In this document: piece by piece, positions 13,952-43,232 of the stretch
How positions within the stretch are numbered: the first letter of the stretch is position 1
Layout of the letters: the number at the start of each line of letters is the position of its first letter
Notes under the pieces: model-generated
What the model was told of the DNA's origin: nothing
The model's input: the letters and a program-made list of their open reading frames with translations, nothing else
Databases searched by the model: none
NCBI RefSeq assembly: GCF_965641715.1
Contig: NZ_OZ282453.1
Strand: one strand, 5' to 3'
DNA from: Escherichia coli
GTDB taxonomy: Bacteria; Pseudomonadota; Gammaproteobacteria; Enterobacterales; Enterobacteriaceae
Length of the DNA: 64,000 nt
Translations under genes and position numbers: made by a program

Positions 13952-13952
13952 A

Positions 13953-15974: not shown

Positions 15975-16000
15975 AAAAAAAGACCTGGAGAAAATCCAGG
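15975..16000 (-). terminator. Intrinsic terminator upstream of satellite capsid operon
   Basis: Hairpin cctgga/tccagg followed by T-run on minus strand, directly after ORF 16012..16260. Confidence 0.5.
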
Positions 16001-16011
16001 CCTTTATCGCT

Positions 16012-16793: not shown

Positions 16794-16957
16794 GCCTTCC
16801 CCTGTAATTACTCTGTTCGCTGTTGTGAATTAAAACGGTATGTTATCCCCGTACAGGTCATCGTGCTGGCCTGTCTGTTGTTTTGCCCTGTTCAGTGCGT
16901 CAGTGGCCTGCCCCTGTTGGCCTTTTTTGCCGCCCGGTCGCGCCGTTCTCGCACTGA

Positions 16958-17254
16958 TTACGCTGTCTGCGATGACCTGCCAGCCCTGCCGCGTTTCGCC
17001 GTTCTGCCCTGTCCACTGCTTACCTGCATGTTACCCGCCACGCTCACCAGTTCGCCTTTGCGGTGTTTTGCCAGTGCGTCGGCCTGTCTGCCAAACGCCA
17101 GGACGGATAACCACATCGTCGCCGTTCCGTCATCTGCCTGGCTGCATGGCAGGGGAACCGCCATACTCGCCATCGCCATTTGTGTTCCCTTGCTGGTGGT
17201 CTTTAACTGCGGGTCAGCCACCAGCCGCCCGTAAGCCGCTATCTGTGCTGTCAT
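16958..17254 (-). CDS. SSB-like OB-fold protein (tentative)
   Basis: 98 aa, ..GRLVADPQLKTT..TATMWLSVLAFGRQA..KGELVSVAG.. resembles short phage SSBs. Confidence 0.35.
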   Translation of the reverse strand: MTAQIAAYGRLVADPQLKTTSKGTQMAMASMAVPLPCSQADDGTATMWLSVLAFGRQADALAKHRKGELVSVAGNMQVSSGQGRTAKRGRAGRSSQTA

Positions 17255-17318
17255 GCTGTCTGCTCTCCGGTTTTAACGTTGATGGTTACGCTTGTTTACA
17301 CCCTTACGGTGAAATTCT

Positions 17319-17441
17319 GCGGGTTATAATCGCACTTTTGCGGGTTATAACTGCCGTTTTGCGGGTTACGTGCGGGTTATTGATTTCCTTTTTATTCATA
17401 CAGTTAATGCACTTATATACATGATAACCCGCATAACCCGC
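17319..17441. repeat. Iteron cluster, candidate satellite origin (4 direct GCGGGTTAT + 2 inverted, AT-rich centre)
   Basis: Immediately downstream of primase/helicase gene. Confidence 0.6.
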
Positions 17442-17464
17442 AACTTTTCACCTCACACAGGGGG

Positions 17465-19588
17465 TTAATCTTCTGCCTCAGGCTGGAACATCAGCACGTA
17501 AAAAACATGCTGCTTCCCCCCAATTTTGCCGAGCGCCTTTTTCTTGTAACGGCGATCGTTACCCGCTTCCAGCATTCCGGCAGCACTCAACGCGCGGGCA
17601 AAGTGAGACGGATTAAATCCCTGTGCTATCTCACCCTCAAATACATGCGGGAACGTGTAAAAACGGAACTCGTCATCTTCGTTTCTGATACTCCCCTTTC
17701 TGTATCCGGCAAGTTCTTTAATCGATAAATCACGCTCGTCGGTATTGGGCCACGGAAGGTATCTGCTGAATCCGAACGACGCTAAAAAAGCTTCTGCCTG
17801 TTCAACCATCTGTTTAAATTCCCTGTTACCCGTGCCGAACTCCTTCACCCAGGCATTAAAATTATGCTGTATGGCATCGCGGCATTCCTGCTCATCCCAG
17901 CCAGTAACATGACCTGAAAGCACAAGCGCGGCCTCCAGTATGGCAAATCGCTCCCCCACACGGTGAACCTGTTCGCCGTAGCTCTCCGGTATCAGGTTGC
18001 GCCACCGCTCACGGCATGTCCTTACCGTGTCCTTTGCCTCCTGCTGGTGTTCTGCCAGCCATTTAACCCACTCACGACCCGCCGCCCCGTGATTTTCTGT
18101 CCAGGCATCCTTTAACGCGTCTGCGTGCGCCTTTCCGGTGCTGTATTCGTGAAATTGCGTGGCTTTTTCCATCGGAACGTTAAGCAGGCGGACAAGCTGC
18201 CCCGCTTTGACTTTTATCCCCTCCGTTTTGAGGAATGTCTCAACGTCCATTTCTCCGGTGCTGATTGCCACCGTGCGCCAGTGTTTGATCTCCCTGTTGC
18301 CGCCGTCCTTCGCCCCCTGTAATTTCCCCGAACCGTTAAACAGCGTATAGGCTGACGTGGACACCTCCCGCGCGTTTCCGGCCTGGCCTATTTCATCCAG
18401 GGGTAAAAGCCCGTCATTGTGTGCCTCTGCTTCGTTGGCGATACCTAACGCTGTGCCGTACCAGGTCAGCCGCTGCGCGTCCGGCTCTCCCCATAAACTT
18501 GATGCGATGTTCTGTGTGGTGGTTTTCCCTGCCGATGACTGTTCGAAAAGATGTACCCCGAAGCCGTCAGCGCCCACCAGCCCGATTAATGGTGCGGATA
18601 ACGATACCGCCACACCCAGCATCATGGACGGATTACCACCAGCCAGCCGCGCAACGGTATCGCGCCAGCCCTCCGCCGTTCCTGCCACGGAATAGCCATT
18701 AACAGCAGCCGTTTTTCCGGTAAACAGGACTGGCTTTTCGCAATCACCAATGACCGAACCGTCCGGCATGATGTACGCGCCAAAATGCCAGCCCGTTGTT
18801 GTGCTTAACTGCCATTCCTCATGGCTTCCGCTTAACTGCATCCAGTCAGCCAGGATAGCCCTGTATTTACCGTTGGTTGTTACGTTCAGTCCGTGGTCTT
18901 TCAGCAACCGCCAGCCGTCACGGTCGCCAATGCCACCGCACGGAACCGCCATTGTGATGACTTCATGGTTTGCTAATTTTTTCCAGCGCATCACGCGGTA
19001 ATGCTCTTTACCGATTGTCCCCGTTCCCAGTAGTTCAAGCGGGGAACATAACCACGTCTCAGGCCGGATAATTTCGCCTGACTGCTTATCCACTTTTGGC
19101 GTTACCCAGAAAACACCATCGGCGCGACTTTCAACGCGGGGCTTTAATTCATCATCGCCCTGGATTTCTGTGATTTTTTTCTTTAAGGGCAACACCAGAC
19201 TTTCCCCGCGCTCGTATTCGTCTTTGAGGCGAGGCAACTGGTCGGATAAATCCGCCGGGCTGATGTCAGTTATCCCCGCGTATTCGTATACGGTCTTCAC
19301 GCCAGCCACAGCCAGCAACGTGACGATCTGTGTAAGGCTACGTTCAGTGATGTGCCCTGCGCGGTAAACACGCACACACTGACGGCTATCATCAATAATT
19401 TGATAACCGGTAATATCTTTCAGGTGTTCATCTGACAGAACGACAGGCGGCACATTGTCGGCGGCAATATGCTTACCTGCCCATTCCTGCCACTCTTTCG
19501 CATGGCTCCACGCATCACTACCCGCAAAGATGATAACCTCCGTCATTTTGTCGGCTGGCTGGTGCTTTAAGTTTGGTGCGCGCTTCAT
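17465..19588 (-). CDS. Primase/helicase-type replication protein
   Basis: 707 aa with Walker A (SSAGKTT), P4-alpha/PICI pri-rep-like position next to iterons. Confidence 0.65.
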   Translation of the reverse strand: MKRAPNLKHQPADKMTEVIIFAGSDAWSHAKEWQEWAGKHIAADNVPPVVLSDEHLKDITGYQIIDDSRQCVRVYRAGHITERSLTQIVTLLAVAGVKTVYEYAGITDISPADLSDQLPRLKDEYERGESLVLPLKKKITEIQGDDELKPRVESRADGVFWVTPKVDKQSGEIIRPETWLCSPLELLGTGTIGKEHYRVMRWKKLANHEVITMAVPCGGIGDRDGWRLLKDHGLNVTTNGKYRAILADWMQLSGSHEEWQLSTTTGWHFGAYIMPDGSVIGDCEKPVLFTGKTAAVNGYSVAGTAEGWRDTVARLAGGNPSMMLGVAVSLSAPLIGLVGADGFGVHLFEQSSAGKTTTQNIASSLWGEPDAQRLTWYGTALGIANEAEAHNDGLLPLDEIGQAGNAREVSTSAYTLFNGSGKLQGAKDGGNREIKHWRTVAISTGEMDVETFLKTEGIKVKAGQLVRLLNVPMEKATQFHEYSTGKAHADALKDAWTENHGAAGREWVKWLAEHQQEAKDTVRTCRERWRNLIPESYGEQVHRVGERFAILEAALVLSGHVTGWDEQECRDAIQHNFNAWVKEFGTGNREFKQMVEQAEAFLASFGFSRYLPWPNTDERDLSIKELAGYRKGSIRNEDDEFRFYTFPHVFEGEIAQGFNPSHFARALSAAGMLEAGNDRRYKKKALGKIGGKQHVFYVLMFQPEAED

Positions 19589-19899
19589 TTTGCCTTTCCC
19601 CGTTCACGAATAATTTCACGTACTGCCTTAATGCGTTCCATTCCTGTAACGCGCATGATTCTGTCGATGTCGCTTAATTCTGCTGGTGGTGCTTTACTTA
19701 CCAAGGTGAACTCCCTGTCAAAGCGCATATGTGACGACACGCAGGGATGCGCATAACCTTCGCGGATATAGGTCACACGAAAATCATCGACGGTTTTGAT
19801 CGTTATCGTGCTGCCGTATTTATCCTGGAAAATATCGCCGGGGCGGATTTCAGGCCGAGCGGGGCCGCTGGCAGTAAAGCCAGAATTTTTCTTTTTCAT
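19585..19899 (-). CDS. Hypothetical protein
   Basis: 104 aa, 4-nt overlap with primase gene. Confidence 0.4.
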   Translation of the reverse strand: MKKKNSGFTASGPARPEIRPGDIFQDKYGSTITIKTVDDFRVTYIREGYAHPCVSSHMRFDREFTLVSKAPPAELSDIDRIMRVTGMERIKAVREIIRERGKAK

Positions 19900-19904
19900 G
19901 TTTT

Positions 19905-20153
19905 TTACTCCAGAGGCAGCTTTTTAGCGGCGAGCTCAATATCAGATGTCAGAGAAACCTGTGTATTTGCCAGGTCTAACAACAAAGAAATAAGAATTTC
20001 TTCTCTGCTATCGGATTTATCGGTGCTAAGGCTGTTCATCCACATATTGACGACTTCCCTGATTTTTTTCGCAGAGTGCAGGGCTTCAAATGCCAGGTCT
20101 TCAATATCATGTTTATTTCGCATAATCGCCCCCGCCATTTTCACAATCAGCAA
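19905..20153 (-). CDS. Hypothetical protein
   Basis: 82 aa ORF in early leftward operon. Confidence 0.3.
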   Translation of the reverse strand: MLIVKMAGAIMRNKHDIEDLAFEALHSAKKIREVVNMWMNSLSTDKSDSREEILISLLLDLANTQVSLTSDIELAAKKLPLE

Positions 20154-20358
20154 TCAGGATGGCTTTTGCCTCATTCAGCGCCATATCAGCACTAAATTGC
20201 ATAACAGCCAGTGAGTGAGGAACGAAAGCCCCGGCATATTCTGTTTCGCTGGTGGCGTGCTTATGCGCCTTGTCTGCGATAACAGAAATATCAATCAGCG
20301 CGTGCATCAGCGTTTTGATGGCTTCGGCGGCTGCGTCCGGACGGGTGTTATTGCACAT
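20113..20358 (-). CDS. Hypothetical protein
   Basis: 81 aa ORF, first gene of leftward operon. Confidence 0.3.
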   Translation of the reverse strand: MCNNTRPDAAAEAIKTLMHALIDISVIADKAHKHATSETEYAGAFVPHSLAVMQFSADMALNEAKAILIADCENGGGDYAK

Positions 20359-20651
20359 GGCGCACCTCCTGACGAATACGGGCAGCGAATACCATCACGC
20401 AGCCAGCCGGGGATTGCTGGCGTGCTTCCTGTTCGCTAGTGGCCTCAATGGTAATCACACGCGGTTGTGCCGTGCTCAGGGCGATAAAACGCCAGATGTA
20501 TTTATTCAGGTTGTGCGAGTCCCGCCCTTGCGGGTGTGTGGTATGATTTAACATAGCTACCTCGATAATCTTGCTATCGTTGGTGGTTAGAAGCCCGGTT
20601 AGTGTTAGCGCACTGCCGGGTTTCGTCGTTTGTATTTCAATAAAACCATTG

Positions 20652-20729
20652 GTGTGTTTCATGTTATTTTGGAGTGAAACACACGTCAAGCCTTTTTTGT
20701 ATTTCTTTTTTGTGTATACTGAAACACAC
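20652..20729. promoter_or_regulatory. Divergent promoter/operator region with three TGAAACACAC half-sites
   Basis: Perfect 10-bp inverted repeat GTGTGTTTCA..TGAAACACAC plus third copy overlapping a TATACT -10. Confidence 0.45.
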
Positions 20730-20750
20730 CAAATTTGAGGAGTTTCAGTT

Positions 20751-21056
20751 ATGGCGACTACCAACAAAAACGCTAAATCACAATTGACCACCGTCAGAGT
20801 CCCCCACGATGTTATGGAGGGCATGGAATCCGTAAAACTGGACGGCGAAAGCAACGCCGGATTCATAGTAACCGCCATGCGCGGTGAGATCGCCCGCCGC
20901 CAGGCAGAAGGAAGCGGAGAAAATCCCCTGGTTTCTTCGCTCGATGCACTGGCGCAGGTGGAAAAAATTGGAGTCAAGGCTGCCGAGGAGATCGGGCAAC
21001 TCGTCACCGTCGCGCGTGAAGAACTCCAGCGACGCAAGGTCAAAGAGCAGGAATAG
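20751..21056 (+). CDS. Ribbon-helix-helix-like regulator (tentative)
   Basis: GAGGAG RBS; N-terminal TTVRVPHDVMEGMESV..AGFIVTAMRGEI pattern. Confidence 0.45.
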   Translation: MATTNKNAKSQLTTVRVPHDVMEGMESVKLDGESNAGFIVTAMRGEIARRQAEGSGENPLVSSLDALAQVEKIGVKAAEEIGQLVTVAREELQRRKVKEQE

Positions 21057-21113
21057 CCACTATCAGCGCCATAGTTTGAGGAACGCAGGCGCATTGCTTT
21101 ACAGGACAGCACC

Positions 21114-21293
21114 ATGAGCGACACAGAATCAACCAAAACACCATCACCAACTCGTAAGAGACGACGCAAAAATATAGCGCATGAACATGAATCAGAAAGA
21201 TTCGCACCTTGTTCGTTTGCTCTTGAGAAATTCCTTAAAGAGCACAGGAAAAAGCTCTCGTTGCAAACCTTGGAACGAACCAAATCTGACTGA
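21114..21293 (+). CDS. Small basic protein (59 aa)
   Basis: ORF below track cutoff, followed by two intrinsic terminators. Confidence 0.25.
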   Translation: MSDTESTKTPSPTRKRRRKNIAHEHESERFAPCSFALEKFLKEHRKKLSLQTLERTKSD

Positions 21294-21359
21294 TCACATT
21301 GCCCACCAGCCGCAAATGTGGCATTGTTGGTGATGCTTTTGTTTTCCCTTGTTCCCACT

Positions 21360-21388
21360 GGCGACCCTTTTGCGGTCGCCTTTGTTTT
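21360..21388 (+). terminator. Intrinsic terminator
   Basis: ggcgaccc tttt gcggtcgcc followed by T-rich run. Confidence 0.45.
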
Positions 21389-21483
21389 GCCTGTTATCCG
21401 GCAATAGTGGCGCTTCGTCACCTGTCTGATATAATTCCACAGCTTATATTCATTTTTTGCGCAGTAGGTTAATTGTTCGCAAG

Positions 21484-21515
21484 GGCGCTCCGGCAACGGG
21501 GCGCTTTTTGTTTTT
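21484..21515 (+). terminator. Intrinsic terminator with GCAA tetraloop
   Basis: gcgctccg GCAA cggggcgc then tttttgttttt. Confidence 0.4.
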
Positions 21516-21673
21516 ACCCACCAGCACAATAAAAATCTTCATTTTCCATTTTTGTAAAATTTCATGCTTTCCGGACGACTGGTCATATGTCATTTTTTAG
21601 CAGAAGATTTTGCCTTGCTGGTGGGTAGCTTCCCGGTCAACACGATGTACCGTATAATCAACACCGCGTGTGG

Positions 21674-22252
21674 TTACTGAATACGCTCACCAAAGTAAAA
21701 CTCAGGCTGGTATTCACGTATCAGCCTTTTTTCTTCTTCCTCCAGCTCACGCTTTTTGCGCTTACATGCCTGTAGCTCCCTCCCCTTCTCACTGGCACTT
21801 ATCTGGTATTGCTCTTTGCGGCGGGAAAAATCCTGTAATGCGCCCCACGGGATACCATAAGCCCCCGTTTTTCTGATACCCGGTATCACATTTCTGAATA
21901 CCCAGTTACTGAAACGATGAGCAAATGTGCCAGGCGTCGTTGCTTTGCGGCTGCGGGCTATTAGTTTGTAGAAACCTGACTCGGAGATAATGCTCATATT
22001 CTGATTTCCTCCGGGGGTGTAAGTTAAATTTACTCCCTTTTCGTCATCATCAAGCATCTGCAACGCCGTACGCGAATTGGTCAATTCCAGCGCAGCACAA
22101 ACATCCTTTGCAACAAACCACGGATCGCCGTTTAGATACACCACACGAACATCCACGCCATCAAAGCGCAGAACGACCAGATCACGAATATCACAGAATT
22201 TTTTCACATGACGTGCGTCACCCTTGCCCGTCACGGCAATATTTTTATTCAT
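21674..22252 (-). CDS. Bro-N domain protein (antirepressor-like)
   Basis: ..FDGVDVRVVYLNGDPWFVAKDVCAALE.. matches Bro-N consensus. Confidence 0.7.
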   Translation of the reverse strand: MNKNIAVTGKGDARHVKKFCDIRDLVVLRFDGVDVRVVYLNGDPWFVAKDVCAALELTNSRTALQMLDDDEKGVNLTYTPGGNQNMSIISESGFYKLIARSRKATTPGTFAHRFSNWVFRNVIPGIRKTGAYGIPWGALQDFSRRKEQYQISASEKGRELQACKRKKRELEEEEKRLIREYQPEFYFGERIQ

Positions 22253-22309
22253 TGCTTTTTACCTCACATACAAAAAACCCCGCATTGCGTGGTGCGGGGT
22301 TGTCGGTAA

Positions 22310-22588
22310 TTACTTATTGGCGTTTTTGTATGGGCTGTTTACTTCCTTTACTCCTGGCGGATGCATAACCCACCAGAGCACATCAGAGAGCAACCAGGAA
22401 ACAGACACTTTCCCTAAATGAGCACGAGCAGGAAATGCTCCCTCCTGTTCAAGTACCCAACGTCTGCTTCTTGAAAGCCCGGTACGATTGGCACACTCAT
22501 GTTCGCGTATACGGCGATCATACGGTTCGCCATGATCTTTCAGAATCTGAATGCGTTCTTCGGGTGTAGGATAAATAAATTTTTGCAT
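22310..22588 (-). CDS. AlpA-family regulator / excisionase-like
   Basis: HECANRTGLSRSRRWVLEQEGAFP..VSWLLSDVLWWV; internal ATG, ORF track start 22618 is TTG. Confidence 0.6.
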   Translation of the reverse strand: MQKFIYPTPEERIQILKDHGEPYDRRIREHECANRTGLSRSRRWVLEQEGAFPARAHLGKVSVSWLLSDVLWWVMHPPGVKEVNSPYKNANK

Positions 22589-22651
22589 AAAAATATCACC
22601 TATAAAAAAACCCGCCAAAAGACGGGTTGATTATATCTCATTTAATTTAGC

Positions 22652-22873
22652 TCAGGGTTTCCATTCACCTTTTACCCATTCCAGCACCTCAGATAAGCGC
22701 CAGACTTTTGTTTGTGGGCCAATACATATTTTTCGTGGAAATTTTCCTTCCTTTTCAAGTAACGATCTGTGTCTCCTGCCAAGAGCGGTTAACCATGCAC
22801 ATTCATCCTCCTTAATCATCCTGTCGATTGTTTCATCATTTTCAAGTTCTTCACGCGTAACTATTTGAATCAT
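22652..22873 (-). CDS. AlpA-family regulator / excisionase-like
   Basis: DECAWLTALGRRHRSLLEKEGKFP..VWRLSEVLEWV; start uncertain (22885, 22873 or 22819). Confidence 0.6.
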   Translation of the reverse strand: MIQIVTREELENDETIDRMIKEDECAWLTALGRRHRSLLEKEGKFPRKICIGPQTKVWRLSEVLEWVKGEWKP

Positions 22874-24074
22874 TACTGTCACCACTAATTTGCTTATTCA
22901 GATAGTCGTACCACCAGTTCATAGCTTCTTTTTTTCTGTCCATATACTGGCTTCTGTTATAAACCCCGGCAACACCGCCTAATGTGTGCCCAAGCAACTG
23001 TTCAACCACATTATGTTCAAAACCATGATCACTTAGTTTTGTGGCAAACACTCTTCGCATATCATGCGCCGTCCATTTCTCCGAGTGTTTCATCCTTTTC
23101 CATGTCTTACCGATAGTTACGCTTGCCGTACACTGACGCATATCAAACCCAATCACATTTTCTTTGTTACCTGTTATTTTTTTTAACGTAACTAACCAGT
23201 TAAACATGCCATCAGGAATCGGTCTGATTATTTCCCTGCCATTTTTGCTATGATCAGCGGGAACGCGCCATAATTTCTTATCAAAATCCCACTCTACCCA
23301 GGACGACAGTAATACTTCTGACAGTCGACAACCAAAAACTACCAGGAAACGTAAAATAATTCGGTTTTCATATGATAATTCGTGATTGTCATAATCAGTA
23401 TTAATACTTCGCCATAAATCTCTGATTTCATCATCTGTTAAAACCCTGCTTCTTCGCGCAGACTTTTTTCCCACATCACAGACCTCAAGATCATCAATTT
23501 CATGACTAATCGCGTATTTTCTTACCCTACAAAATTTAAGCGCCTGTTTTGATATACGCAACAAAGCTCCGGCCTGTACAGGTGCTACTTTTTTTATTTT
23601 GTCAAAACACTTAATCCACATAGATATAGAGCAATCACTAAGTGGTACATGACCAATCACCGGATAAATATGTTTACCAAAGCACTGCCTGATATGTTCT
23701 GCTCCCCTACGCTTATCCATTGCATAATTATCAAGCCAGTATTCAAGTGCCTCACGAACGGTAACAGGTTGCAAGGTGGCTTCCCGTTCAATTTTTATCT
23801 GAATCCGTGGATCTCTGCCCTCCGCAAGCCAGGTTCGACACTGATCGCGCATCTCTCTCGCTGATTTGAGACTCAGATCAGGATATTTTCCAAGTGTCAG
23901 CCAGATGGGCGCGGTTCCCCTTCCCGCCAGTCTGTAAAAGAAAACAAAACTAACACATCCGTATTTACTGACCCGTACCGAAAGCCCGTTACCATCAGCG
24001 ATGGTTTCCTGCCTCTCACTCCTGCGCCCAAGCAGGGAACGAAGTTTTTTATCGCTCAGTTTGTTTAGCGCCAT
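22851..24074 (-). CDS. Tyrosine integrase, P4 type (satellite)
   Basis: MALNKLSDKKLRSL.. N-terminus, C-terminal HxxR..Y catalytic region; ORF track start 24110. Confidence 0.85.
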   Translation of the reverse strand: MALNKLSDKKLRSLLGRRSERQETIADGNGLSVRVSKYGCVSFVFFYRLAGRGTAPIWLTLGKYPDLSLKSAREMRDQCRTWLAEGRDPRIQIKIEREATLQPVTVREALEYWLDNYAMDKRRGAEHIRQCFGKHIYPVIGHVPLSDCSISMWIKCFDKIKKVAPVQAGALLRISKQALKFCRVRKYAISHEIDDLEVCDVGKKSARRSRVLTDDEIRDLWRSINTDYDNHELSYENRIILRFLVVFGCRLSEVLLSSWVEWDFDKKLWRVPADHSKNGREIIRPIPDGMFNWLVTLKKITGNKENVIGFDMRQCTASVTIGKTWKRMKHSEKWTAHDMRRVFATKLSDHGFEHNVVEQLLGHTLGGVAGVYNRSQYMDRKKEAMNWWYDYLNKQISGDSNDSNSYA

Positions 24075-24094
24075 GTGATTTATAACCCGTTTTT

Positions 24095-24115
24095 GCAATA
24101 CACAGTGCAATACAC
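24095..24115. repeat. Tandem GCAATACAC motifs, candidate integrase arm-type sites (right arm)
   Basis: gcaatacacagtgcaatacac just upstream of int; copy at 9271..9291. Confidence 0.4.
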
Positions 24116-24245
24116 AAATGATGAAAACAGCCAGAACCTTCCAGAAAAAACAAAAACGACGAACAAGAAAAAATCTTTTTCTTTCATTTGGTTACTAAAA
24201 AAATCAGGACAGGTCGCACTGTTGTTACGGCGTGATGTTACTTTC

Positions 24246-24259
24246 TTTGTGAAAAAATT
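24246..24259. repeat. Satellite junction core, right copy (tttgtgaaaaaatt)
   Basis: First 7 bp identical to 9189..9195; encodes ..FTK of the terL N-terminal fragment. Confidence 0.55.
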
Positions 24260-25273
24260 CACCCGCGCCGAGACCTGCTCCTTCGCCTTTTTCGCCAGAC
24301 GACGCAGATCATCCCAGCGTTTACAGATGCCCAGGCCGGGATTCGCTTTCTGCCAGACCGTTTCATCAAACGGATCATCTCCCTCATCGAGCGTGTAAAT
24401 GATCGCAAAGTAAGAGTCGTCTTTTACCGCGCCCTCCACGTCACTGTTATAGCCACGCAATACCTTAATGGCGTAATCACGCTGCTCGTAACAAATCCCT
24501 TCCTTGTTAAACCCTGCCGTGGTGATACCAAATAAAAGGGACTGCAGACGGGCACCGGTTGCCGTTTCCAGAACGTCCCACACGTCACGGGTTTTATGTG
24601 CATGCAGCTCATCAATAATGGCGCAGTGGATGTTCAGACCGTCCAGGTTGTTTGCATCCGAGGAAAGCGGTTCAAATTTTGATGCGCTCTGCTCCTGGTA
24701 GATCGCCAGCTTGTTGAAATCAAATAACCGCCCGAGTGTCGACCGGGCTTTTCTGACCATATTTTTGGCGTCTTCAAACACGATTCTGGCCTGGTCACGC
24801 GTGGTTGCGGCTGAATACACCTCAGCTCCACCTTCACCATCTGCCCCCGTCATATACAGGCCGATACCCGATGACAGAGTTGATTTTGCGTTTTTACGGG
24901 CGACTTCGTTGTACGCCGTCCGGAACCGGCGCACCATCACCGGACGTCCGCTGCCATCGCTGCGCATGACAACTTCCCCGGTCTCTTCATTCACCAGCGG
25001 AATGACAAAACCAAAAATATTAATGAGGATAAATACATGCCAGTCCATCAACTCAATGGGCTGGCCTGCCAGCGCCCCTTTTACATGAGGCACAAATTTG
25101 TAGAAATTCAGGATGTGCTGCGCACGGGGTTCACTGAAATAAATCCCCCGCTCTTCGCCGTACTTCAGATCATCAAGAAAACGCTGGCAGGCCAGACGGA
25201 CAAATTCCCCAGCAACAATTTCTCCTGCAACAACACGTTCGGCGTAGCGGATCCCGTCAGCCACTTTTGCCAT
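24253..25273 (-). pseudogene. Terminase large subunit, N-terminal ATPase fragment (gene split by satellite)
   Basis: ORF 24080..25273: first ~340 aa align to TerL N-terminus (VARKNAKST, AIIDELH), then 54 unrelated residues read into the satellite. Confidence 0.8.
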
Positions 25274-28858: not shown

Positions 28859-28935
28859 TGGTCCGCCACCGAGGACTCGAACCTCGCACCATCAACTTAG
28901 AAGGTTGATGCTCTATCCCGATGAGCTAGTGGCGG
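28859..28935 (-). tRNA. tRNA-Arg (anticodon UCU)
   Basis: Cloverleaf with acceptor CCGCCAC/GTGGCGG, anticodon loop CTTCTAA, TTCGAGT T-loop, encoded CCA. Confidence 0.8.
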
Positions 28936-28936
28936 T

Positions 28937-29012
28937 TGGTGGCCCTTGCTGGATTTGAACCAGCGACCTGGCGATTATGAGTCGCTCGCTCTCACCACTG
29001 AGCTAAAGGGCC
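28937..29012 (-). tRNA. tRNA-Ile2 (anticodon CAU, ileX/ileZ-like)
   Basis: GGCCCTTTAGCTCAGTGG..CTCATAA..GGTTCAAATCC..CCA, near-identical to E. coli ileX as recalled. Confidence 0.8.
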
Positions 29013-31776: not shown

Positions 31777-31932
31777 TTACTCCTCAGGTTCGTAAGCTGT
31801 GAAGACAGCGACCCCCGTCTGGCCGGTTCGGATTCGTACCTCGCAGAGGTCTTTCCTCGTTACCAGTGCCGTCACAATGACGGTTAAACAGATGACGATC
31901 AGGGCGATTAACATCGCCTTTTGCTGCTTCAT
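31777..31932 (-). CDS. hokD: Hok-family type I toxin (HokD/RelF-like), 51 aa
   Basis: MKQQKAMLIALIVICLTVIVTALVTRKDLCEVRIRTGQT.. near-identical to HokD as recalled. Confidence 0.8.
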   Translation of the reverse strand: MKQQKAMLIALIVICLTVIVTALVTRKDLCEVRIRTGQTGVAVFTAYEPEE

Positions 31933-32185
31933 AGCCTGCTTCTCCTTGCCTTTCGGCACGTAAGAGGCTAACCTAGATTTGCCGTTCATAGATTGAGCCT
32001 CAGATTAATGTTAAGCGTCTTGCAGGACGCGTAATGTTAACTGGGGCTTTTCTCTATCTGCCTTTGGTGTTCATGCCTGAGGCAGATAGCCTCAAGCACC
32101 CGCAGCAATTCTACTTAAGTTAGATAAGCTTTTCTATGGTATTCTCTCAGCGTCCCGTAAATACAGTCTCGGCTCATCATTTTTA

Positions 32186-35998: not shown

Positions 35999-36089
35999 GA
36001 GTCGCTCCATAAAACTGAACGCCAAAAGTTTAATAATCAAAACCAAAGAAAGTCAAGAAACAAAACCATCTGTGTTTTAAAATCAAAAC

Positions 36090-36728
36090 ATGAGCAAGCA
36101 AACAATATCTGAACGCATAACCCAACGTATGCATGCGCTAAACCTGAAAGGCAAAGACCTTGTCAATGCCACTGGCGCATCAAAAGGCTCCGTAAGTCAA
36201 TGGATGAACGGTGGAGGAGCGCCGTCCTCGCGTTACATAAGTTCACTGGCAAAAATATTGAAAGTAAACGAAAATTGGCTTCTTAATGGAGGAGAGTTAA
36301 ATACAGGTGATTCGCTTGATCTATCTTTACCGCCGATAAAAACGGTTCCGCTACTATCACTTCAGCAGGCAGCAAGCTGGAGTGATTATATGAAAAATTC
36401 CTCAATAACCTCTTGTGTGCAGCTTGTCGGAGAAATCCCGGCCAATACCTTTGCAGTTGTTCTAGAGAGTGACAGTATGTCAACATCTGGTGGGGGAGTT
36501 TCCATCCCAAATGGTTCAACAGTTTTTGTTGATCCCGATCGAACCGTACAACCAGGAAATATTGTCCTTGCCTTACCCAAAGGGACCACAACACCTGTCA
36601 TTCGTAAACTGGAGATAGAAGGGCCGGATATTCTTTTAGTCCCCACGAATCCTCGCTACCCTTCAATTATGCTGGATGATCTATCTTGCATATTGGGCGT
36701 ATGCTTTAAAATTCAACAAGATATTTAA
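36090..36728 (+). CDS. CI-type repressor (HTH + S24 LexA-like peptidase)
   Basis: N-terminal HTH (..KGKDLVNATGASKGSVSQW..), C-terminal S24 domain. Confidence 0.8.
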   Translation: MSKQTISERITQRMHALNLKGKDLVNATGASKGSVSQWMNGGGAPSSRYISSLAKILKVNENWLLNGGELNTGDSLDLSLPPIKTVPLLSLQQAASWSDYMKNSSITSCVQLVGEIPANTFAVVLESDSMSTSGGGVSIPNGSTVFVDPDRTVQPGNIVLALPKGTTTPVIRKLEIEGPDILLVPTNPRYPSIMLDDLSCILGVCFKIQQDI

Positions 36729-37159
36729 CCGACCTCATCTATTTGATTAACTGTATGCCATCGTGGTGATGGCTTAACAGCTGCCTGCTTAAAATGTTTT
36801 GATAAAAAAACATTGACCTGAAAAGTTCATTTTTCTAAACTTCATTCATTCCCTCTCCCCACCCCACAGAATGCAGGGCAATACTTCGAGTTACCAGGCA
36901 GTGGTCAGGGGTTAAGTAGCCAGCCTGAGGCGTAAGAACATGACGGCAGGGTCCAACTTTAATAACTATGCAGCAGGTTTTTGTTCCGCTACCCCGGCGT
37001 TAAGGGGAAACAGAGGATTTCTCAGTGGGCGAAGTCAAACATCAGAATGGAAGGCATCACGGGATCGGCAAAGAAGCAGCAATGGCGCTTTATATTGACA
37101 TCAGCGCCATTGCCGGACAGGTAAGAGTTATCAGAGCGGTAACTAAGCGGTATGCGTCT

Positions 37160-37366
37160 TTATTTCAGAAAGTCTCTGGTGAGTGCACCGAAGATATTGT
37201 CAACGATTTCGTCATCGAACTGCGAGGACTCATCTTCAGTTACAAGGTGACCACAATTTTTGCAGATGGCTCCCGCGAAACTGTCAGAGCCCTGCGGCTT
37301 AAAGGATGTGTCAAAGACTTCGCCACCACATTCTGGGCAAGAAAACTTGATTGTATTCATAACCAA
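37160..37366 (-). CDS. Zinc-ribbon small protein (tentative)
   Basis: CPECGG..CKNCGH; overlaps an alternative plus-strand ORF 37025..37381. Confidence 0.3.
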   Translation of the reverse strand: MVMNTIKFSCPECGGEVFDTSFKPQGSDSFAGAICKNCGHLVTEDESSQFDDEIVDNIFGALTRDFLK

Positions 37367-37452
37367 TTTCCTCTCGAGTAACAGACCCCTCAGAGGATAC
37401 CACCTCGCCTGACGTGGTTAAAAGCAGGCAATGCGAACCACAAGGAGCTGAC

Positions 37453-37671
37453 ATGCAGAAACGAGAACCTGTCATCATCGCGCCAGACTATACCGATGAT
37501 GAACTTTATGAGTGGATGCGCCAGAAAATTAATGCAGCGCAGGATCTGAAATGGGCTAATGAAGCCAGGGCTAAGCAGGCTGAAAATCTGTTCTCTCTGG
37601 AGCAGGATATCACCAATCTGGAAAAAGCAGCGGCATTAAGCATTGCCAGAATGATTACATACCCACGTTAA
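37453..37671 (+). CDS. YdfC-like protein (72 aa)
   Basis: AAGGAG RBS before ATG; size and position as in Qin dicB operon; ORF track start 37414. Confidence 0.4.
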   Translation: MQKREPVIIAPDYTDDELYEWMRQKINAAQDLKWANEARAKQAENLFSLEQDITNLEKAAALSIARMITYPR

Positions 37672-37693
37672 TAGCTAACCAACGAGGCTAATA

Positions 37694-38101
37694 ATGGAAT
37701 TTAAAGATTTACCAAAAGAAATCCAGACAATTGCTGCAACGACTCTCGGTGATAGTCTGGTGAAAATTGACCCGGCATACACCAAAAAAGAAACCATCGA
37801 TAATATGGTTCGTAATGTGCGCAATGCTTTTTCTGGGCTATATGGTTCTGATAATCAAAAGCAGGAAAGCGATGTTAATGAACGGGTAATTTCTGTTTGC
37901 GTGAATGGCCATGTTCTTTCATCAATCAAAACAGAAACAGCGACAGTCTTCGATTGCCTTTGCATTGTACAGAGCCTTGTTGATGCCCTGTTTCGTTCAG
38001 TGAATTTAGAAAATGATGCAAATCTGCGAGGGCGCACAATAGCACATCCATATGCACATACTTTAGGCTCTGTGGATATCAAAGATCCCACAAATCTTTA
38101 A
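37694..38101 (+). CDS. Hypothetical protein
   Basis: 135 aa ORF in pL-type operon. Confidence 0.4.
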   Translation: MEFKDLPKEIQTIAATTLGDSLVKIDPAYTKKETIDNMVRNVRNAFSGLYGSDNQKQESDVNERVISVCVNGHVLSSIKTETATVFDCLCIVQSLVDALFRSVNLENDANLRGRTIAHPYAHTLGSVDIKDPTNL

Positions 38102-38645
38102 TGAAATAGTTAACGCGAATTGTACTTGCTCTTTCAGTTGCTTTCAGAATACGCGTTGAAACTGCTGGCGGTAATTTGGTATTCCATTTATTAAAATCAT
38201 GCCCGGGGAAGTACTCTTCGAAAATACTTTTAACTGCAGACTCGCCTATTGAAATGCTGCTTACCATGCGATTTTGATAAAGGCATTTAGCAATAAGAGT
38301 TGATTTTAACATTCACCCTCCTGAGGGTTGGTAATTAAGGAGTTCTCCACGGGTGAGGTGGAGTGCGTGCGCCGGACACGGGTGAACATCCGGCACTGAC
38401 AGTTTACTGAAAGGATATTTCCCTGAAAAGTCAGACCATAACGCGAAAGCGCACGGCGAGGTAGCTGGTTCATAGATAGCCTGTCGTTAAATTTTCGTCG
38501 ACCGTGCGCTTCCGGTTGTGGCAACCCGCGAAATGGCGCGGCGGTAAGTATGGCGGGGTTATTCCTTCCCCGTTGAGGACACCGGGTTGTCAGGTTGACC
38601 ATACGCTTAAGTGACAACCCCGCTGCAACGCCCTCTGTTATCAAT

Positions 38646-38698
38646 TTTCTGGTGACGTTTGGCGGTATCAGTTTTACTCCGTGACTGCTCTGCCGCCC
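38646..38698 (+). ncRNA. dicF: DicF small RNA (cell-division inhibitor sRNA)
   Basis: tttctggtgacgtttggcggtatcagttttactccgtgactgctctgccgccc + T-run matches DicF as recalled. Confidence 0.65.
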
Positions 38699-38872
38699 TT
38701 TTTAAAGTGAATTTTGTGATGCGGTGAATGCGGCTAAGCGCACGCGGAACAGTTAAAACCAAAAACAGTGTTATGGGTGGATTCTCTGTATCCGGCGTTA
38801 ATTGTTAACTGGTTAACGTCACCTGGAGGCACCAGGCACTGCATCACAAAATTCATTGTTGAGGACGCGATA

Positions 38873-39061
38873 ATGAAAACGTTATTACCAAACGTTAATA
38901 CGTCTGAAGGTTGTTTTGAAATTGGTGTCACTATCAGTAACCCTGTATTTACTGAAGATGCCATTAACAAGAGAAAACAAGAACGGGAGCTATTAAATAA
39001 AATATGCATTGTTTCAATGCTGGCTCGTTTACGTCTGATGCCAAAAGGATGTGCACAATGA
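38873..39061 (+). CDS. dicB: Cell division inhibitor DicB (62 aa)
   Basis: MKTLLPNVNTSEGCFEIGVT.. directly downstream of DicF; ORF track start 38768. Confidence 0.7.
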   Translation: MKTLLPNVNTSEGCFEIGVTISNPVFTEDAINKRKQERELLNKICIVSMLARLRLMPKGCAQ

Positions 39062-39249
39062 ATTCAGCATTTGCGCTTGTTCTGACAGTTTTTCTTGTTT
39101 CCGGAGAGCCAGTTGATATTGCAGTCAGTGTTCACAGGACAATGCAGGAGTGTATGACTGCAGCAACCGAACAGAAAATTCCCGGTAACTGTTACCCGGT
39201 CGATAAAGTTATTCACCAGGATAATATCGAAATCCCGGCAGGTCTTTAA
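39058..39249 (+). CDS. ydfD: YdfD-like protein (63 aa)
   Basis: MNSAFALVLTVFLVSGEPV.. follows dicB with ATGA overlap. Confidence 0.55.
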   Translation: MNSAFALVLTVFLVSGEPVDIAVSVHRTMQECMTAATEQKIPGNCYPVDKVIHQDNIEIPAGL

Positions 39250-39342
39250 AACAGTTCCGTAATAAATATCCGGTTTCATTCTTATATGCCAGCAATGGCA
39301 GGGATTTGTTCATCCTTAAATCTGTCATGAGGTTAAAACAAA

Positions 39343-41814
39343 ATGAGTAAAGTCTTTATTTGCGCCGCTATTCCTGACGAACTGGCAACAAGGGAAGAAG
39401 GCGCTGTGGCTGTAGCCACAGCCATTGAAGCTGGCGACGAACGCCGTGCTCGAGCAAAATTTCACTGGCAGTTCCTGGAACATTATCCGGCTGCTCAGGA
39501 CTGCGCTTATAAATTTATTGTCTGCGAGGATAAACCTGGCATACCCCGCCATGCCCTCGATTCATGGGATGCTGAATATATGCAGGAAAACCGCTGGGAT
39601 GAGGAGTCTGCTTCTTTTGTCCCGGTTGAGACTGAATCCGATCCGATGAACGTCACTTTTGACAAGCTGGCCCCTGAAGTACAGAACGCTGTCATGGTTA
39701 AGTTCGACACATGTGAAAACATCACCGTTGATATGGTTATTAGCGCACAGGAATTGTTGCAGGAAGACATGGCAACATTCGACGGACATATCGTTGAAGC
39801 GTTGATGAAAATGCCAGAAGTTAACGCCATGTATCCGGAGCTTAAGTTGCACGCCATTGGGTGGGTTAAGCATAAATGTATTCCTGGTGCTAAATGGCCC
39901 GAAATTCAGGCAGAGATGCGCATCTGGAAAAAACGTCGCGAAGGTGAACGCAAGGAAACCGGAAAATACACGTCTGTTGTTGATCTCGCCCGCGCCAGAG
40001 CCAATCAACAGAACACTGAAAATTCAACAGGAAAAATCAGCCCGGTCATTGCTGCCACTCATCGCGAATACAAGCAGACATGGAAAACACTGGATGACGA
40101 ACTGGCCTACGCTCTCTGGCCTGGTGATGTGGATGCCGGAAACATTGACGGCAGCATCCATCGCTGGGCAAAAAAAGAAGTTATCGACAACGACCGCGAA
40201 GACTGGAAGCGTATCTCGGCATCAATGCGCAAACAGCCTGATGCCCTTCGCTACGACCGCCAGACTATTTTTGGCCTTGTCCGTGAACGTCCGATCGACA
40301 TTCACAAAGACCCTGTGGCACTGAACAAATACATTACTGAATACCTGACTACAAAGGGCGTGTTTGAAGATGAAGGAAGAAATCAGAGCGCAACTGATAC
40401 TCTCTCGTCGCCAGTACCAGAAACTGATGCAGTGGAAACGGCAATTCCGGACAACGAAAAAACCGAATGCAAAGTGGAAGTCGAACCATCTGTAGAGCGT
40501 GAAGGGCCGTTCTACTTCCTCTTCACCGACAAGGATAGCGAAAAATACGGTCGCGCAAACAAACTTTCTGGTCTGGATAAGGCACTGGCTGCAGGGGCTA
40601 CTGAAATCACGAAAGAAGAATATTTCGCCCGCAAAAACGGTACATACTCAGGTTCACAACAAAATACTGGTGCATCTGACACGACCGCACAACCAGGGCC
40701 GGTAAAAGTTACCGCTGACGAAGTAAACAAAATTATGCAGGCAGCCAATATCAGCCAGCCTGACGCCGATGAACTGCTTGCAGTATCACGTGGTGAATTT
40801 GTTGCAGGGATTAGCGATCCGAATGATCCGAAATGGGTGAAGGGGATTGAAACCCGCGATTCTGTGAACCAGAACCAGCAAGAAACGGAACAGAACGACC
40901 AGAAAGCGGAACAAAACAGCCCAAATACGCCACAAAACGAGCCAGAAACGAAACTACCTGAACCAGTAGTGCAACAGGAAGTGGAAAAAGTCTGCACCGC
41001 CTGCGGTCAGACCGGCGGCGGCAACTGCCCTGATTGTGGTGCGGTGATGGGCGACGCAACATACCAAGAAACATTCGATGAAGAGTATCAGGTTGAAGTT
41101 CAGGAAGATGATCCGGAGGAAATGGAAGGCGCTGAACATCCACACAAGGAGAACACTGGCGGCAATCAGCATCACAATAGCGATAATGAGACTGGCGAGA
41201 CGGCAGATCACTCAATTAAGGTGAACGGTCATCACGAAATCACATCCACCAGCAGGACGTGTGACCATCTAATGATCGACCTTGAAACCATGGGAAAAAA
41301 TCCTGATGCCCCGATCATCTCAATAGGTGCAATATTTTTCGATCCGCAAACCGGAGATATGGGACCGGAATTTAGTAAGACTATCGATCTGGAAACTGCT
41401 GGCGGAGTCATTGATCGGGACACCATTAAATGGTGGCTTAAGCAATCACGCGAAGCGCAATCTGCCATTATGACCGATGAAATCCCGTTAGATGATGCAC
41501 TGTTACAATTGCGGGAATTTATCGACGAAAACTCCGGTGAATTTTTTGTTCAGGTTTGGGGAAATGGAGCCAACTTCGACAACACGATTTTGCGCCGTTC
41601 ATACGAACGGCAGGGGATCCCCTGCCCGTGGCGTTACTACAACGATCGCGATGTACGCACAATCGTTGAGCTGGGGAAAGCCATAGACTTCGATGCCAGA
41701 ACGGCTATTCCATTCGAAGGTGAGCGCCATAATGCACTTGATGACGCTCGTTACCAGGCAAAATACGTTTCAGCTATCTGGCAAAAACTGATCCCGAGTC
41801 AGGCTGATTTTTAA
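39343..41814 (+). CDS. RecE-like exonuclease with C-terminal DnaQ-type 3'-5' exonuclease domain
   Basis: 823 aa; ..SRGEFVAGISDPNDPKWVKGIETRD.. RecE-like segment, CxxC..CxxC ribbon, C-terminal DLETMG..H..D. Confidence 0.5.
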   Translation: MSKVFICAAIPDELATREEGAVAVATAIEAGDERRARAKFHWQFLEHYPAAQDCAYKFIVCEDKPGIPRHALDSWDAEYMQENRWDEESASFVPVETESDPMNVTFDKLAPEVQNAVMVKFDTCENITVDMVISAQELLQEDMATFDGHIVEALMKMPEVNAMYPELKLHAIGWVKHKCIPGAKWPEIQAEMRIWKKRREGERKETGKYTSVVDLARARANQQNTENSTGKISPVIAATHREYKQTWKTLDDELAYALWPGDVDAGNIDGSIHRWAKKEVIDNDREDWKRISASMRKQPDALRYDRQTIFGLVRERPIDIHKDPVALNKYITEYLTTKGVFEDEGRNQSATDTLSSPVPETDAVETAIPDNEKTECKVEVEPSVEREGPFYFLFTDKDSEKYGRANKLSGLDKALAAGATEITKEEYFARKNGTYSGSQQNTGASDTTAQPGPVKVTADEVNKIMQAANISQPDADELLAVSRGEFVAGISDPNDPKWVKGIETRDSVNQNQQETEQNDQKAEQNSPNTPQNEPETKLPEPVVQQEVEKVCTACGQTGGGNCPDCGAVMGDATYQETFDEEYQVEVQEDDPEEMEGAEHPHKENTGGNQHHNSDNETGETADHSIKVNGHHEITSTSRTCDHLMIDLETMGKNPDAPIISIGAIFFDPQTGDMGPEFSKTIDLETAGGVIDRDTIKWWLKQSREAQSAIMTDEIPLDDALLQLREFIDENSGEFFVQVWGNGANFDNTILRRSYERQGIPCPWRYYNDRDVRTIVELGKAIDFDARTAIPFEGERHNALDDARYQAKYVSAIWQKLIPSQADF

Positions 41815-41875: not shown

Positions 41876-42145
41876 ATGAGCGAACAGTACCTGATAACGC
41901 TCGATGAGTGGAAGCCAAAACGGTTCAGTCTCCCAATAACAAACACTACCCTGGTGAAATACGGAAAACTAGGATACATCGTTCCAAGACCACAAAAAAT
42001 TCGTGGGCGTTGGCTGATAGATCGCCGGGCAGTATTTGTTGGACCTGGTGAAACGGGAATTGCGCCGGAAATTCATACTGGCGATGATGATGCACTGAAG
42101 GAGATTTTAACTCATGTCACCGAGGCCACGAAAAAACAGCACTGA
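41876..42145 (+). CDS. Excisionase-like protein
   Basis: Call by position only: small ORF immediately upstream of and overlapping int. Confidence 0.4.
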   Translation: MSEQYLITLDEWKPKRFSLPITNTTLVKYGKLGYIVPRPQKIRGRWLIDRRAVFVGPGETGIAPEIHTGDDDALKEILTHVTEATKKQH

Positions 42146-43232
42146 CGTAACCGGTCTTTACGAAAAGTTTGATCGCAGAACTGGCAGGGTTTACTACCAG
42201 TATAAAAACCCTGTGACTGGAAAATTTCACGGTCTCGGAACAGACAAAGGCAAAGCAGAAAAAATCGCTTCCACAGCCAATCAGCGAATAGCTGCAGCAG
42301 AAGCTGAATATTTCATGCGCAAAATTGATGAAAGTCCGTCAGCAACAAAACGTCGGGGTATCAGATTAAAGGCATGGGTTGATCGATATCTGAAAATACA
42401 GGACGCGCGACTGAAAAATGGAGATATTGCAGCTACAACTCACAAAGAAAAAGCCCGAATGGCTGCATACCTGGTTTCCCGTCTGGGAAACCACCCATTG
42501 AAAGAACTGGAAGTAAGAGACTTTGCATTAATACTGGATGAGTGGCTGGATAAAGACATGGTCAGCACAGCGAGAGTAAATCGTGGATTATGGGTTGATA
42601 TTTATAAAGAAGCACAGCATGCAGGGGAAGTTCCTCCTGGATGGAATCCTCCGGAGGCTACCCGTAAACCGATCCCTAAAGTAACCAGAGCCAGACTCAC
42701 CCTAGAGGACTGGCAAAAAATTTACAATTCAACACCAGAAAAACACTTTATCCGTAACGCAATGCTTCTTGCGATTGTTACTGGTCAGCGCCGTGATGAC
42801 ATTTGCCACATGCGTTTTTCAGATGTGTGGAACGAACACTTGCATATCACCCAGGGAAAAACCGGAATGCGTCTGGCGTTACCGCTTACGCTACGCTGTG
42901 ATGCCATTGGAATATCGCTAAAAGAAGTGATTGATGGATGCAAGGACAGAATATTGAGTCCATACCTGATTCATAGTCGGCACCAGAAACAACCAAAACC
43001 AATGAGTAAAGATAACCTGAGCGACTACTTTGCTAAAGCGCGGGATCTGGCAGGAATAACTCCACCAGCAGGAAAAACACCACCAACATTTCATGAACAA
43101 CGCTCCCTGTCAGAACGACTGTACCGCGCACAGGGTATCGATACAAAAACATTACTGGGACATAAAGTCCAAGCAACCACCGATCGTTATAACGATACTC
43201 GTGGTCAGGAATGGGTTAAATTGGTTGTTTGA
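42114..43232 (+). CDS. Tyrosine integrase (helper prophage)
   Basis: 372 aa lambda-family integrase at prophage end. Confidence 0.85.
   Translation: MSPRPRKNSTDVTGLYEKFDRRTGRVYYQYKNPVTGKFHGLGTDKGKAEKIASTANQRIAAAEAEYFMRKIDESPSATKRRGIRLKAWVDRYLKIQDARLKNGDIAATTHKEKARMAAYLVSRLGNHPLKELEVRDFALILDEWLDKDMVSTARVNRGLWVDIYKEAQHAGEVPPGWNPPEATRKPIPKVTRARLTLEDWQKIYNSTPEKHFIRNAMLLAIVTGQRRDDICHMRFSDVWNEHLHITQGKTGMRLALPLTLRCDAIGISLKEVIDGCKDRILSPYLIHSRHQKQPKPMSKDNLSDYFAKARDLAGITPPAGKTPPTFHEQRSLSERLYRAQGIDTKTLLGHKVQATTDRYNDTRGQEWVKLVV

Follow-up and report, generated by a model that had tools for sequence, protein, structure and literature searches.

A dicF-dicB-ydfD division-inhibition module in a lambdoid Escherichia coli prophage and a candidate structured RNA core in its leader

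The segment from position 37453 to 39249 of a 64,000-nucleotide (nt) stretch of Escherichia coli DNA (contig NZ_OZ282453.1; the whole stretch is called the window here) raises the question whether it carries the cell-division inhibition module dicF-dicB-ydfD in a phage operon under repressor control, and what the long leader in front of dicF, the gene of a small RNA (sRNA), contributes to it. DicF has been studied since the 1980s as an sRNA of 53 nt. The first part of the question can be answered with a probability of about 90%: the module belongs to an early-left operon that is under repressor control in a lambdoid E. coli prophage. It is already known and annotated, and it is a standard division-inhibition and phage-exclusion cassette. 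The sole parts that go beyond the existing annotation are a structured RNA core in the leader and a convergent gene pair.

The module and its early-left operon

The module and the gene ydfC upstream of it comprise the following elements:

37453..37671, + strand: ydfC, 72 amino acids (aa) (PHROG 1744, K-12 identity, RefSeq name)
38646..38703, + strand: DicF sRNA including terminator hairpin and U-run, the 53-nt sRNA itself being 38646-38698 (Rfam RF00039, exact K-12 sequence)
38873..39061, + strand: dicB, cell-division inhibitor, 62 aa (Pfam, NCBIfam, K-12 identity)
39058..39249, + strand: ydfD, 63 aa, DUF1482, 'lysis protein YdfD' (PF07358, RefSeq name)

A preliminary description, made from the letters alone, had recognized DicF in a 53-nt segment followed by a T-run and had proposed an Rfam search as a check, which is passed clearly. 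In the 64-kilobase window, RF00039 matched 38647-38698 (+) over its full length (model positions 1-52) with 76.7 bits (gathering score 48, E = 3.6e-15), all 53 bases of 38646-38698 are identical to K-12 dicF, and UUUUU follows directly at the 3' end. The sequence also has the single-stranded 5' seed and the Rho-independent terminator hairpin expected of a DicF RNA. The 62-aa open reading frame (ORF) that had been called DicB-like, with a similarity search suggested as the test, matched Pfam PF05358 (136.8 bits, cut-off 27, E = 1.9e-40) as well as NCBIfam NF049927 (132.8 bits, cut-off 100), and it is identical to K-12 DicB in 62 of 62 residues (100%). The start codon of ydfD overlaps the dicB stop by 4 nt. 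Its 63-aa product had rightly been compared to YdfD; it matched PF07358 (DUF1482) with 92 bits (gathering score 25, E = 2.1e-26) and is identical to the K-12 protein in 62 of 63 residues, the single substitution being V6A. For the 72-aa ORF the assignment to YdfC stands (PHROG 1744, E = 1.7e-38; 70 of 72 residues identical to K-12), but its placement directly ahead of the leader does not, because an insert of 637 base pairs (bp) lies between them. All four elements are confirmed at their positions, far beyond chance. Genomes that are identical or nearly so have ydfC, dicB, and ydfD annotated at this locus in RefSeq. A 1.9-kilobase query finds at least a partial match in 4756 of 5426 complete E. 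coli genomes, and in 644 of them the match covers 80% of the query or more.

The operon around the module is defined by the following features:

36090..36728, + strand: CI-type repressor with helix-turn-helix and S24 peptidase domains (Pfam Peptidase_S24 2e-13, HTH_3)
36794..36841, + strand: candidate pL-type promoter with operator-like palindrome (promoter scan, shared motif; consensus-level matches)
37160..37366, - strand: ECs_2282-family zinc-ribbon gene (NCBIfam NF047912, 57.2 bits, cut-off 37; RefSeq)
39343..41814, + strand: exonuclease, 823 aa, next gene in the operon (Pfam Rv2179c-like 3'-5' exoribonuclease domain, 1.5e-67)
42114-43229, + strand: lambda-type integrase, downstream of the exonuclease

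The window represents a lambdoid E. coli prophage adjoining potC, potD, and lolE. Along the + strand, the order is repressor, promoter-like site, antisense zinc-ribbon gene, ydfC, two ORFs, leader, dicF, dicB, ydfD, exonuclease, and integrase. The repressor also has weak NCBIfam matches of the DicA/LexA type, and a related RefSeq prophage carries at its position a 'LexA family protein' beside a divergent Cro/CI regulator on the opposite strand. The exonuclease has in addition a partial exodeoxyribonuclease VIII match in NCBIfam, and in the related prophage an excisionase gene lies between exonuclease and integrase. The promoter scan predicted a -35 box TTGACC (36813-36818) and, at a spacing of 17, a -10 box TAAACT (36836-36841); the operator-like palindrome (36794-36813) abuts the -35 box. 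Its motif, ATGTTTT-N6-AAAACAT, has related predicted copies at 36027-36045 and 36073-36091 in the divergent cro/cI region, which are 74-84% similar. Operator-like copies at both regions would correspond to the classical OL/OR layout, and position and shared motifs support a pL-type operon. This designation from the preliminary description fits the gene order as well: the operon is located downstream of a CI-type repressor and runs in the same orientation, the repressor faces a divergent cro, and exonuclease-xis-int form the end. The K-12 promoter dicBp has likewise been described as lambda-PL-like (PMC10448788).

No observation contradicts the identity of the module. Several points weigh against this reading of the operon. 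The repressor keeps the S24 catalytic serine (DSM) and the downstream lysine, and carries Ala-Ala at residues 94-95 (LQQAASW). The cleavage site of CI and LexA is Ala-Gly. Because Ala-Ala stands in place of Ala-Gly, it is uncertain whether the early-left operon, including dicF and dicB, would be inducible by the RecA-dependent SOS response. No N-like antiterminator was recognized among the ORFs between promoter and ydfC or in the annotations of related RefSeq prophages, and no dedicated search for N or nut was run. Furthermore, two antisense genes lie in or beside the operon (37160-37366 and 38079-38312), and the production of DicB requires read-through of the DicF terminator.

Processing and function are predicted from K-12, where they are shown for identical or near-identical sequence. 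In K-12, the prophage repressor represses the operon, DicF and Hfq repress ftsZ, xylR, pykA, and manX, and DicB inhibits FtsZ rings with MinC and excludes phages that depend on ManYZ (PMC10448788, PMC5069750). In the prophage studied here, inactivation of the CI-type repressor would allow transcription from about 36813-36841 through ydfC, the 135-aa ORF of the insert, and the leader. Ribonuclease (RNase) III would cut the long leader hairpin, leaving a species of about 190 nt, which RNase E would trim to the 53-nt DicF. Together with Hfq, DicF would pair with the ftsZ messenger RNA (mRNA) and block its translation, and it would also repress the xylR, pykA, and manX mRNAs. Read-through of the DicF terminator would yield DicB, which would recruit MinC to the septum and dismantle FtsZ rings, and which would also block phages that inject their DNA through ManYZ; YdfD would be co-translated with DicB. 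The MinC-dependent action of DicB is expected from its 100% identity to the characterized protein, and a block of host division from the identity of these products to their characterized K-12 counterparts. The outcome would be filamentation of the host upon derepression or induction, analogous to the effect of lambda Kil.

A structured core within the dicF leader

The region upstream of DicF has been called "a long untranslated region" (PMC5069750). In K-12, RNase III acts on the polycistronic RNA and generates a 190-nt species, from which RNase E produces the 53-nt DicF, and no internal promoter for DicF was found (PMC10448788). The 190-nt RNA, which is stable in stationary phase, is regarded as a processing form in the DicF literature (PMC10448788). 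The leader comprises the following elements, most of which belong to a core of 115 nt:

38329..38514, + strand: 5' part of the dicF leader, with a long hairpin (about 99% K-12 identity, predicted hairpin)
38515..38629, + strand: structured RNA core of 'long DicF', 115 nt (covariation, covariance model, minimum-energy fold)
38515-38521/38623-38629, + strand: closing helix of the core (GUUGUGG/CYRCAAC)
38526-38530/38537-38541, + strand: core helix H1 (covariation model)
38554-38558/38568-38572, + strand: core helix H2 (covariation model)
38584-38592/38612-38620, + strand: core helix H3 (covariation model)
38543-38553/38599-38607, + strand: likely pseudoknot between the H1-H2 junction and the H3 loop (mostly invariant columns)

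The preliminary description had seen no convincing ORF in the approximately 330 bp upstream of DicF (38320..38645), which is borne out on both strands. Coding is excluded by indels in H2 (1 nt and 4-6 nt long) as well as by compensatory changes among the homologues, and the two candidate ORFs, one of 36 aa (+) and one of 112 aa (-), were rejected for these frame-breaking indels and compensatory changes. It had also considered this tract to be probably a processed leader. This is in agreement with the identity of about 99% to a K-12 tract that RNase III and RNase E process, but it understates the tract, because a conserved structured domain lies inside it. In the predicted long hairpin, 38436-38456 pairs with 38502-38521. 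Counting 190 nt back from the 3' end of DicF leads to 38509-38514, inside the 3' arm of this hairpin, and the length of the K-12 species thus places the putative RNase III cut near these positions. The core begins at this putative cut, which would give the 190-nt long DicF, and lies between the two known processing sites.

For an alignment of the core, IMG/VR was scanned for the invariant loop, and the 60 distinct 130-nt versions obtained were realigned to a covariance model. In this alignment, 96.4% of the cells are paired, compared to 36-48% when the partners are slid by 1-3 columns; the closing helix is 94.3% paired, compared to 29-50% at offsets. Nine pairs are changed on both sides, versus 2.7 +/- 1.0 in shuffled alignments, and none of 500 shuffles reached the observed value on any of five measures, a control that does not correct for phylogeny. 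H2 occurs as CGGGG/CCCCG, CUGGG/CCCAG, CCAGGG/CCCUG, and GGGGG/CCCCC, H3 as GUUGUCA/UGACAAC, GUUGCCA/UGGCAAC, and GUAACCA/UGGUUAC. The minimum free energy fold of the isolated core (-45.1 kcal/mol) contains the same helices as the covariation model, and the covariance model scored 159.7 bits in the window, at 38509-38638. The pseudoknot rests mostly on invariant columns, some of which were fixed by the search pattern; this pattern fixed most of the H3 loop, and the invariance of the loop is therefore partly by construction. Only one pair of the pseudoknot is changed on both sides (U-A to C-G), in the P1 clade only, and two further pairs alternate between wobble and Watson-Crick.

We tentatively propose, at slightly below even odds, that 38515-38629 is an undescribed and functional structured RNA family with a closing helix, three hairpins, and a loop-to-junction pseudoknot. 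As part of the same tentative proposal, the family would span Qin-like prophages, other lambdoid phages of Escherichia, Salmonella, and Citrobacter, and P1. If this is true, DicF is one 3' variant of a broader modular phage RNA, whose conserved domain serves early-left transcription as a cis-regulatory or factor-binding element. For 38313-38645 no Rfam family was found at E values up to 10; the scan returned only DicF and a sub-threshold match to STnc100 in the following spacer. No paper describing the core domain was found, a 2026 preprint on Pas-sRNAs does not mention DicF or its leader, and the P1 record annotates it only as a 'dicF-like region'. The CA-rich motif CYRCAAC had suggested a GcvB sponge like AgvB. 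This candidate was rejected, because CYRCAAC is more readily accounted for by its place in the closing helix, of which it forms the 3' strand; AgvB (RF02702) had no match at E up to 10 in 37300-39400, and six related loci gave none at E up to 0.01.

The conservation of the leader might alternatively reflect only recent common descent, if the module were an inert, negligibly expressed relic in a defective prophage. Most of the E. coli copies share an identity of 95% or more, as would fit a recent spread, the terL gene of the prophage is split by an inserted element, and the K-12 operon is tightly repressed and toxic upon expression (PMC10448788). However, every ORF of the module is intact, DicF is unchanged, and the exonuclease and integrase genes that follow are full-length. 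The segment 38515-38637 recurs with 77-89% identity in phages without DicF (cdtI, Stx2c phages, 2H10, Ayreon, and Salmonella phage F1055), and at this identity the homologues in P1, cdtI, F1055, and Citrobacter keep the core pairing through compensatory changes, unlike what is expected for drift. In K-12, DicB moreover provides a measurable benefit by phage exclusion (PMC10448788). We regard a relic as quite improbable.

Distribution and possible roles of the core

Of 5426 complete E. coli genomes, 4416 (about 81%) carry the core, in a median of 2 and at most 8 copies, and it is unannotated in the E. coli records listed. About 500 mostly P1-like plasmids carry it, and it also occurs in E. albertii and Citrobacter. 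These last two were the only real finds of a scan of genome contigs with GGCGCGGCNGNAAGNATGG, a pattern that is too GC-rich, so that nearly all other matches were due to chance. In all 72 dereplicated copies a hairpin with a U-run follows 3' of the core, at a distance of about 36-100 nt (142 nt in one copy, for which the script picked a later hairpin). More than 10 different hairpins are found at this position, of which canonical DicF is the commonest, one among several. In nine IMG/VR loci (L011, L037, L116, L029, L032, L049, L107, L062, and L110) distinct DicF-like 3' units follow the same core. In one such unit DicF is shortened and the UUUCUGGUGA seed is kept on a different hairpin, GGCGGAAAUGGAUAUCCGCC, and others have different single-stranded 5' segments. 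Judged from their sequences, these units may form a family of sRNA variants with possibly different targets.

In P1, the annotated 'dicF-like region' just downstream of the C1-controlled ban promoter contains the same core (103 bits) followed by an intrinsic terminator. It is devoid of DicF sequence and has an unrelated terminator hairpin, GCCCAUCUUCGGGUGGGC. The core starts about 20-35 nt past the -10 box of Pban, the match to the covariance model about 25 nt past it, and a primary transcript reaching to the terminator would have a length of about 190 nt. Since the core is so near to Pban, the P1 RNA would therefore be a primary transcript, not a product of RNase III. A near-consensus pL precedes the core of cdtI by about 280 nt, and a terminator and then the first early-left gene come after the core. 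Two Stx-type phages, phiSTEC1589-Stx1c (L007, 1300-1930) and Shigella phage 75/02 Stx (L008), have lost the core and kept the flanking leader hairpin and a diverged DicF-like RNA, which in L007 scores 35.6 bits, below the threshold. The loss is clean in L007; L008 retains part of H3. The annotation of the core-less phiSTEC1589 includes an N gene, and in this sample of two phages possession of N may be linked to absence of the core.

These arrangements bear on a role of the core as a cis-acting antiterminator or attenuator, comparable to the put RNAs of HK022 or to a riboswitch, which would set transcription into dicB or kil, exo, xis, and int in phages without N. It would fit that the core stands in sense orientation within repressor-controlled early operons, close behind the promoter in P1 and ahead of the first early-left gene in cdtI, and that a conserved domain with a variable terminator, as in all 72 copies, is the layout of a riboswitch. 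The two core-less phages, one with an annotated N, and this prophage, in which an N-like gene was not recognized (no dedicated search), fit as well. On the other side, homology to put was rejected, as none is detectable: the covariance model found nothing across the whole HK022 genome at E up to 1. In K-12, termination at DicF is efficient despite the core, because the main transcript is the one that stops at the DicF terminator, and a longer one builds up only when RNase E is inactivated (PMC10448788). No conserved alternative pairing with the terminator was found, and the link to N rests on two phages. An antiterminator or attenuator is a rather unlikely role.

Alternatively, the core could be a functional RNA by itself, as the body of the 190-nt species or as a fragment of about 137 nt released by RNase E, that binds a protein of host or phage or sponges another RNA. 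The variable 3' hairpin would then supply the terminator and the Hfq-binding part. Loops and junctions are nearly invariant in E. coli, Salmonella, Citrobacter, and P1 while the stems covary, as expected for a specific binding surface, and the P1 transcript from promoter through core to terminator would, at about 190 nt, have the size of K-12 long DicF, whose stability in stationary phase would suit such a role. The CA-rich motif 3' of H3 could also be cited in its favor, but it is better read as the closing-helix strand; the core matches neither AgvB nor any other Rfam family, and no published interactome evidence was found. This role is unlikely, and we place it after that of an antiterminator. 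Our best guess is a third possibility, namely, that the core is the structured 5' body of the 190-nt RNA and controls in cis its processing and stability or the read-through of the terminator, and we rank a cis-acting processing or stability domain first, an antiterminator or attenuator second, and an independent protein- or RNA-binding RNA third. If the core controls processing or read-through, this would explain how the expression of the toxic dicB or kil is gated in prophages without an N protein, and it would provide a direct experimental handle on the 190-nt DicF isoform.

A further conserved element follows downstream of DicF:

38704..38872, + strand: dicF-dicB spacer, the 5' untranslated region (UTR) of dicB (sub-threshold STnc100 resemblance)

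The resemblance to STnc100 (Rfam RF02076) extends over 38696-38905 and reaches 34.8 bits, below the gathering score of 47. In phage Evi, ydfC, the block of a 135-aa and a 77-aa gene, the leader, dicF (with one substitution), and the spacer are present at about 98% identity, and a gene annotated as Kil occupies the slot of dicB-ydfD, with the ribosome-binding site of dicB as the exact point of the switch. In Shigella phage 75/02 Stx, too, a gene annotated as Kil fills this slot, behind the same spacer and a dicF-type RNA. Counterparts of the spacer were located at 5009-5194 in L003 and at 1589-1787 in L008. As dicB and kil are swapped behind the same RNA cassette, the slot for the division inhibitor is therefore exchangeable, and conservation of the spacer ahead of either gene suggests that it may control alternative division inhibitors as a 5' UTR element common to them.

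Prophage context and comparison with known systems

The insert between ydfC and the leader (about 37692-38328), which is absent from K-12 Qin, contains the convergent gene pair mentioned at the outset, both genes of which were missing from the preliminary description:

37694..38101, + strand: 135-aa ORF in the 637-bp insert (K-12 alignment; PHROG 1363, 2.4e-46)
38079..38312, - strand: 77-aa ORF, convergent to the 135-aa ORF (23-nt 3' overlap with it)

Both proteins fall into PHROG families of unknown function and had no match in Pfam, NCBIfam, PADLOC, or the sequences of the PDB. For the 77-aa protein a confident fold was predicted (predicted local distance difference test score, pLDDT, 97.3), and no structural neighbor of the predicted structure was found. 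Lambdoid prophages of Serratia and Dickeya keep the convergent pair at the same position and with the same overlap. Their + strand partner consists of the C-terminal domain only (77-79 aa), which is homologous to residues 58-135, approximately, of the 135-aa protein. The pair may be a moron that is expressed in the lysogen and controlled by antisense transcription.

The terL gene of the prophage (- strand, 8462-25273) is interrupted by an element of about 15 kilobases, which separates its N-terminal part (24083-25273) from its C-terminal nuclease part (8462-9184). The element includes the following genes:

22854-24110, - strand: P4-type integrase
17468-19588, - strand: DUF927 primase-like gene
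16254-16793, - strand: ProQ/FinO protein
9718-15737, - strand: capsid, S78 protease, portal, terS, and terL of the element

It also encodes a Bro-N protein, and no direct repeats of at least 14 nt were found at its junctions. From this gene content the element looks like a capsid-forming satellite that would have integrated into the terL of its helper. The term 'helper', which had been applied to the prophage, is a fair one, since the element in the prophage terL is satellite-like and brings along an integrase, a primase-like gene, and capsid genes of its own. Elsewhere in the prophage, a full-length sok antitoxin RNA was found at 31927-32101 (-; Rfam RF01794, 111.7 bits, threshold 59), which implies a putative toxin-antitoxin locus of the hok/sok type. 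Downstream of the Q antiterminator region two adjacent transfer RNA (tRNA) genes (72.5 and 59.4 bits) are located at 28862-29012 (-), and a related RefSeq prophage has four tRNAs at this position.

The closest known system is the dicBF operon of the K-12 prophage Qin (ydfABC-dicF-dicB-ydfD), in which ydfC, a leader of about 320 nt, dicF, the spacer, dicB, and ydfD have the same order and orientation. Direct alignment gave about 99% nucleotide identity in ydfC and from about 38329 through ydfD, and in leader, dicF, and spacer together (38329-38872) there are 7 mismatches in 544 nt. The distance from the ydfC stop to dicF is 340 nt in K-12. As K-12 has the same leader, the leader tract is therefore ancestral. 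In contrast to Qin, ydfA and ydfB are missing here and the 637-bp insert is present. The immunity regions differ as well, with a CI-type repressor with S24 peptidase here and the non-cleavable DicA in Qin, and the downstream exonuclease and integrase genes, which are pseudogenes in Qin, are full-length ORFs here.

The spacer can be compared to the prophage sRNAs STnc100 and PasD. In the window, in Evi, and in two Stx-type phages, its alignment spans the complete STnc100 model with the CACCUGGAGGCACCAGG hairpin, and in P1 the match is only partial; the window and four other loci reach 31-35 bits, below 47. Here it is a 5' UTR directly ahead of dicB and does not form an sRNA gene of its own. For the core, the put RNAs of HK022 and riboswitch leaders offer an analogy only, as structured RNAs that precede terminators in the early transcripts of phages not relying on an N-type protein; the core differs from them by its lack of detectable similarity to the HK022 genome and by the efficient DicF termination in K-12. 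Lambda kil, like the DicB module, provides a small division inhibitor directed at FtsZ from the early-left operon upon induction. The proteins are unrelated; DicB acts via MinC according to the literature, and the module has with DicF an additional sRNA arm that lambda does not possess.

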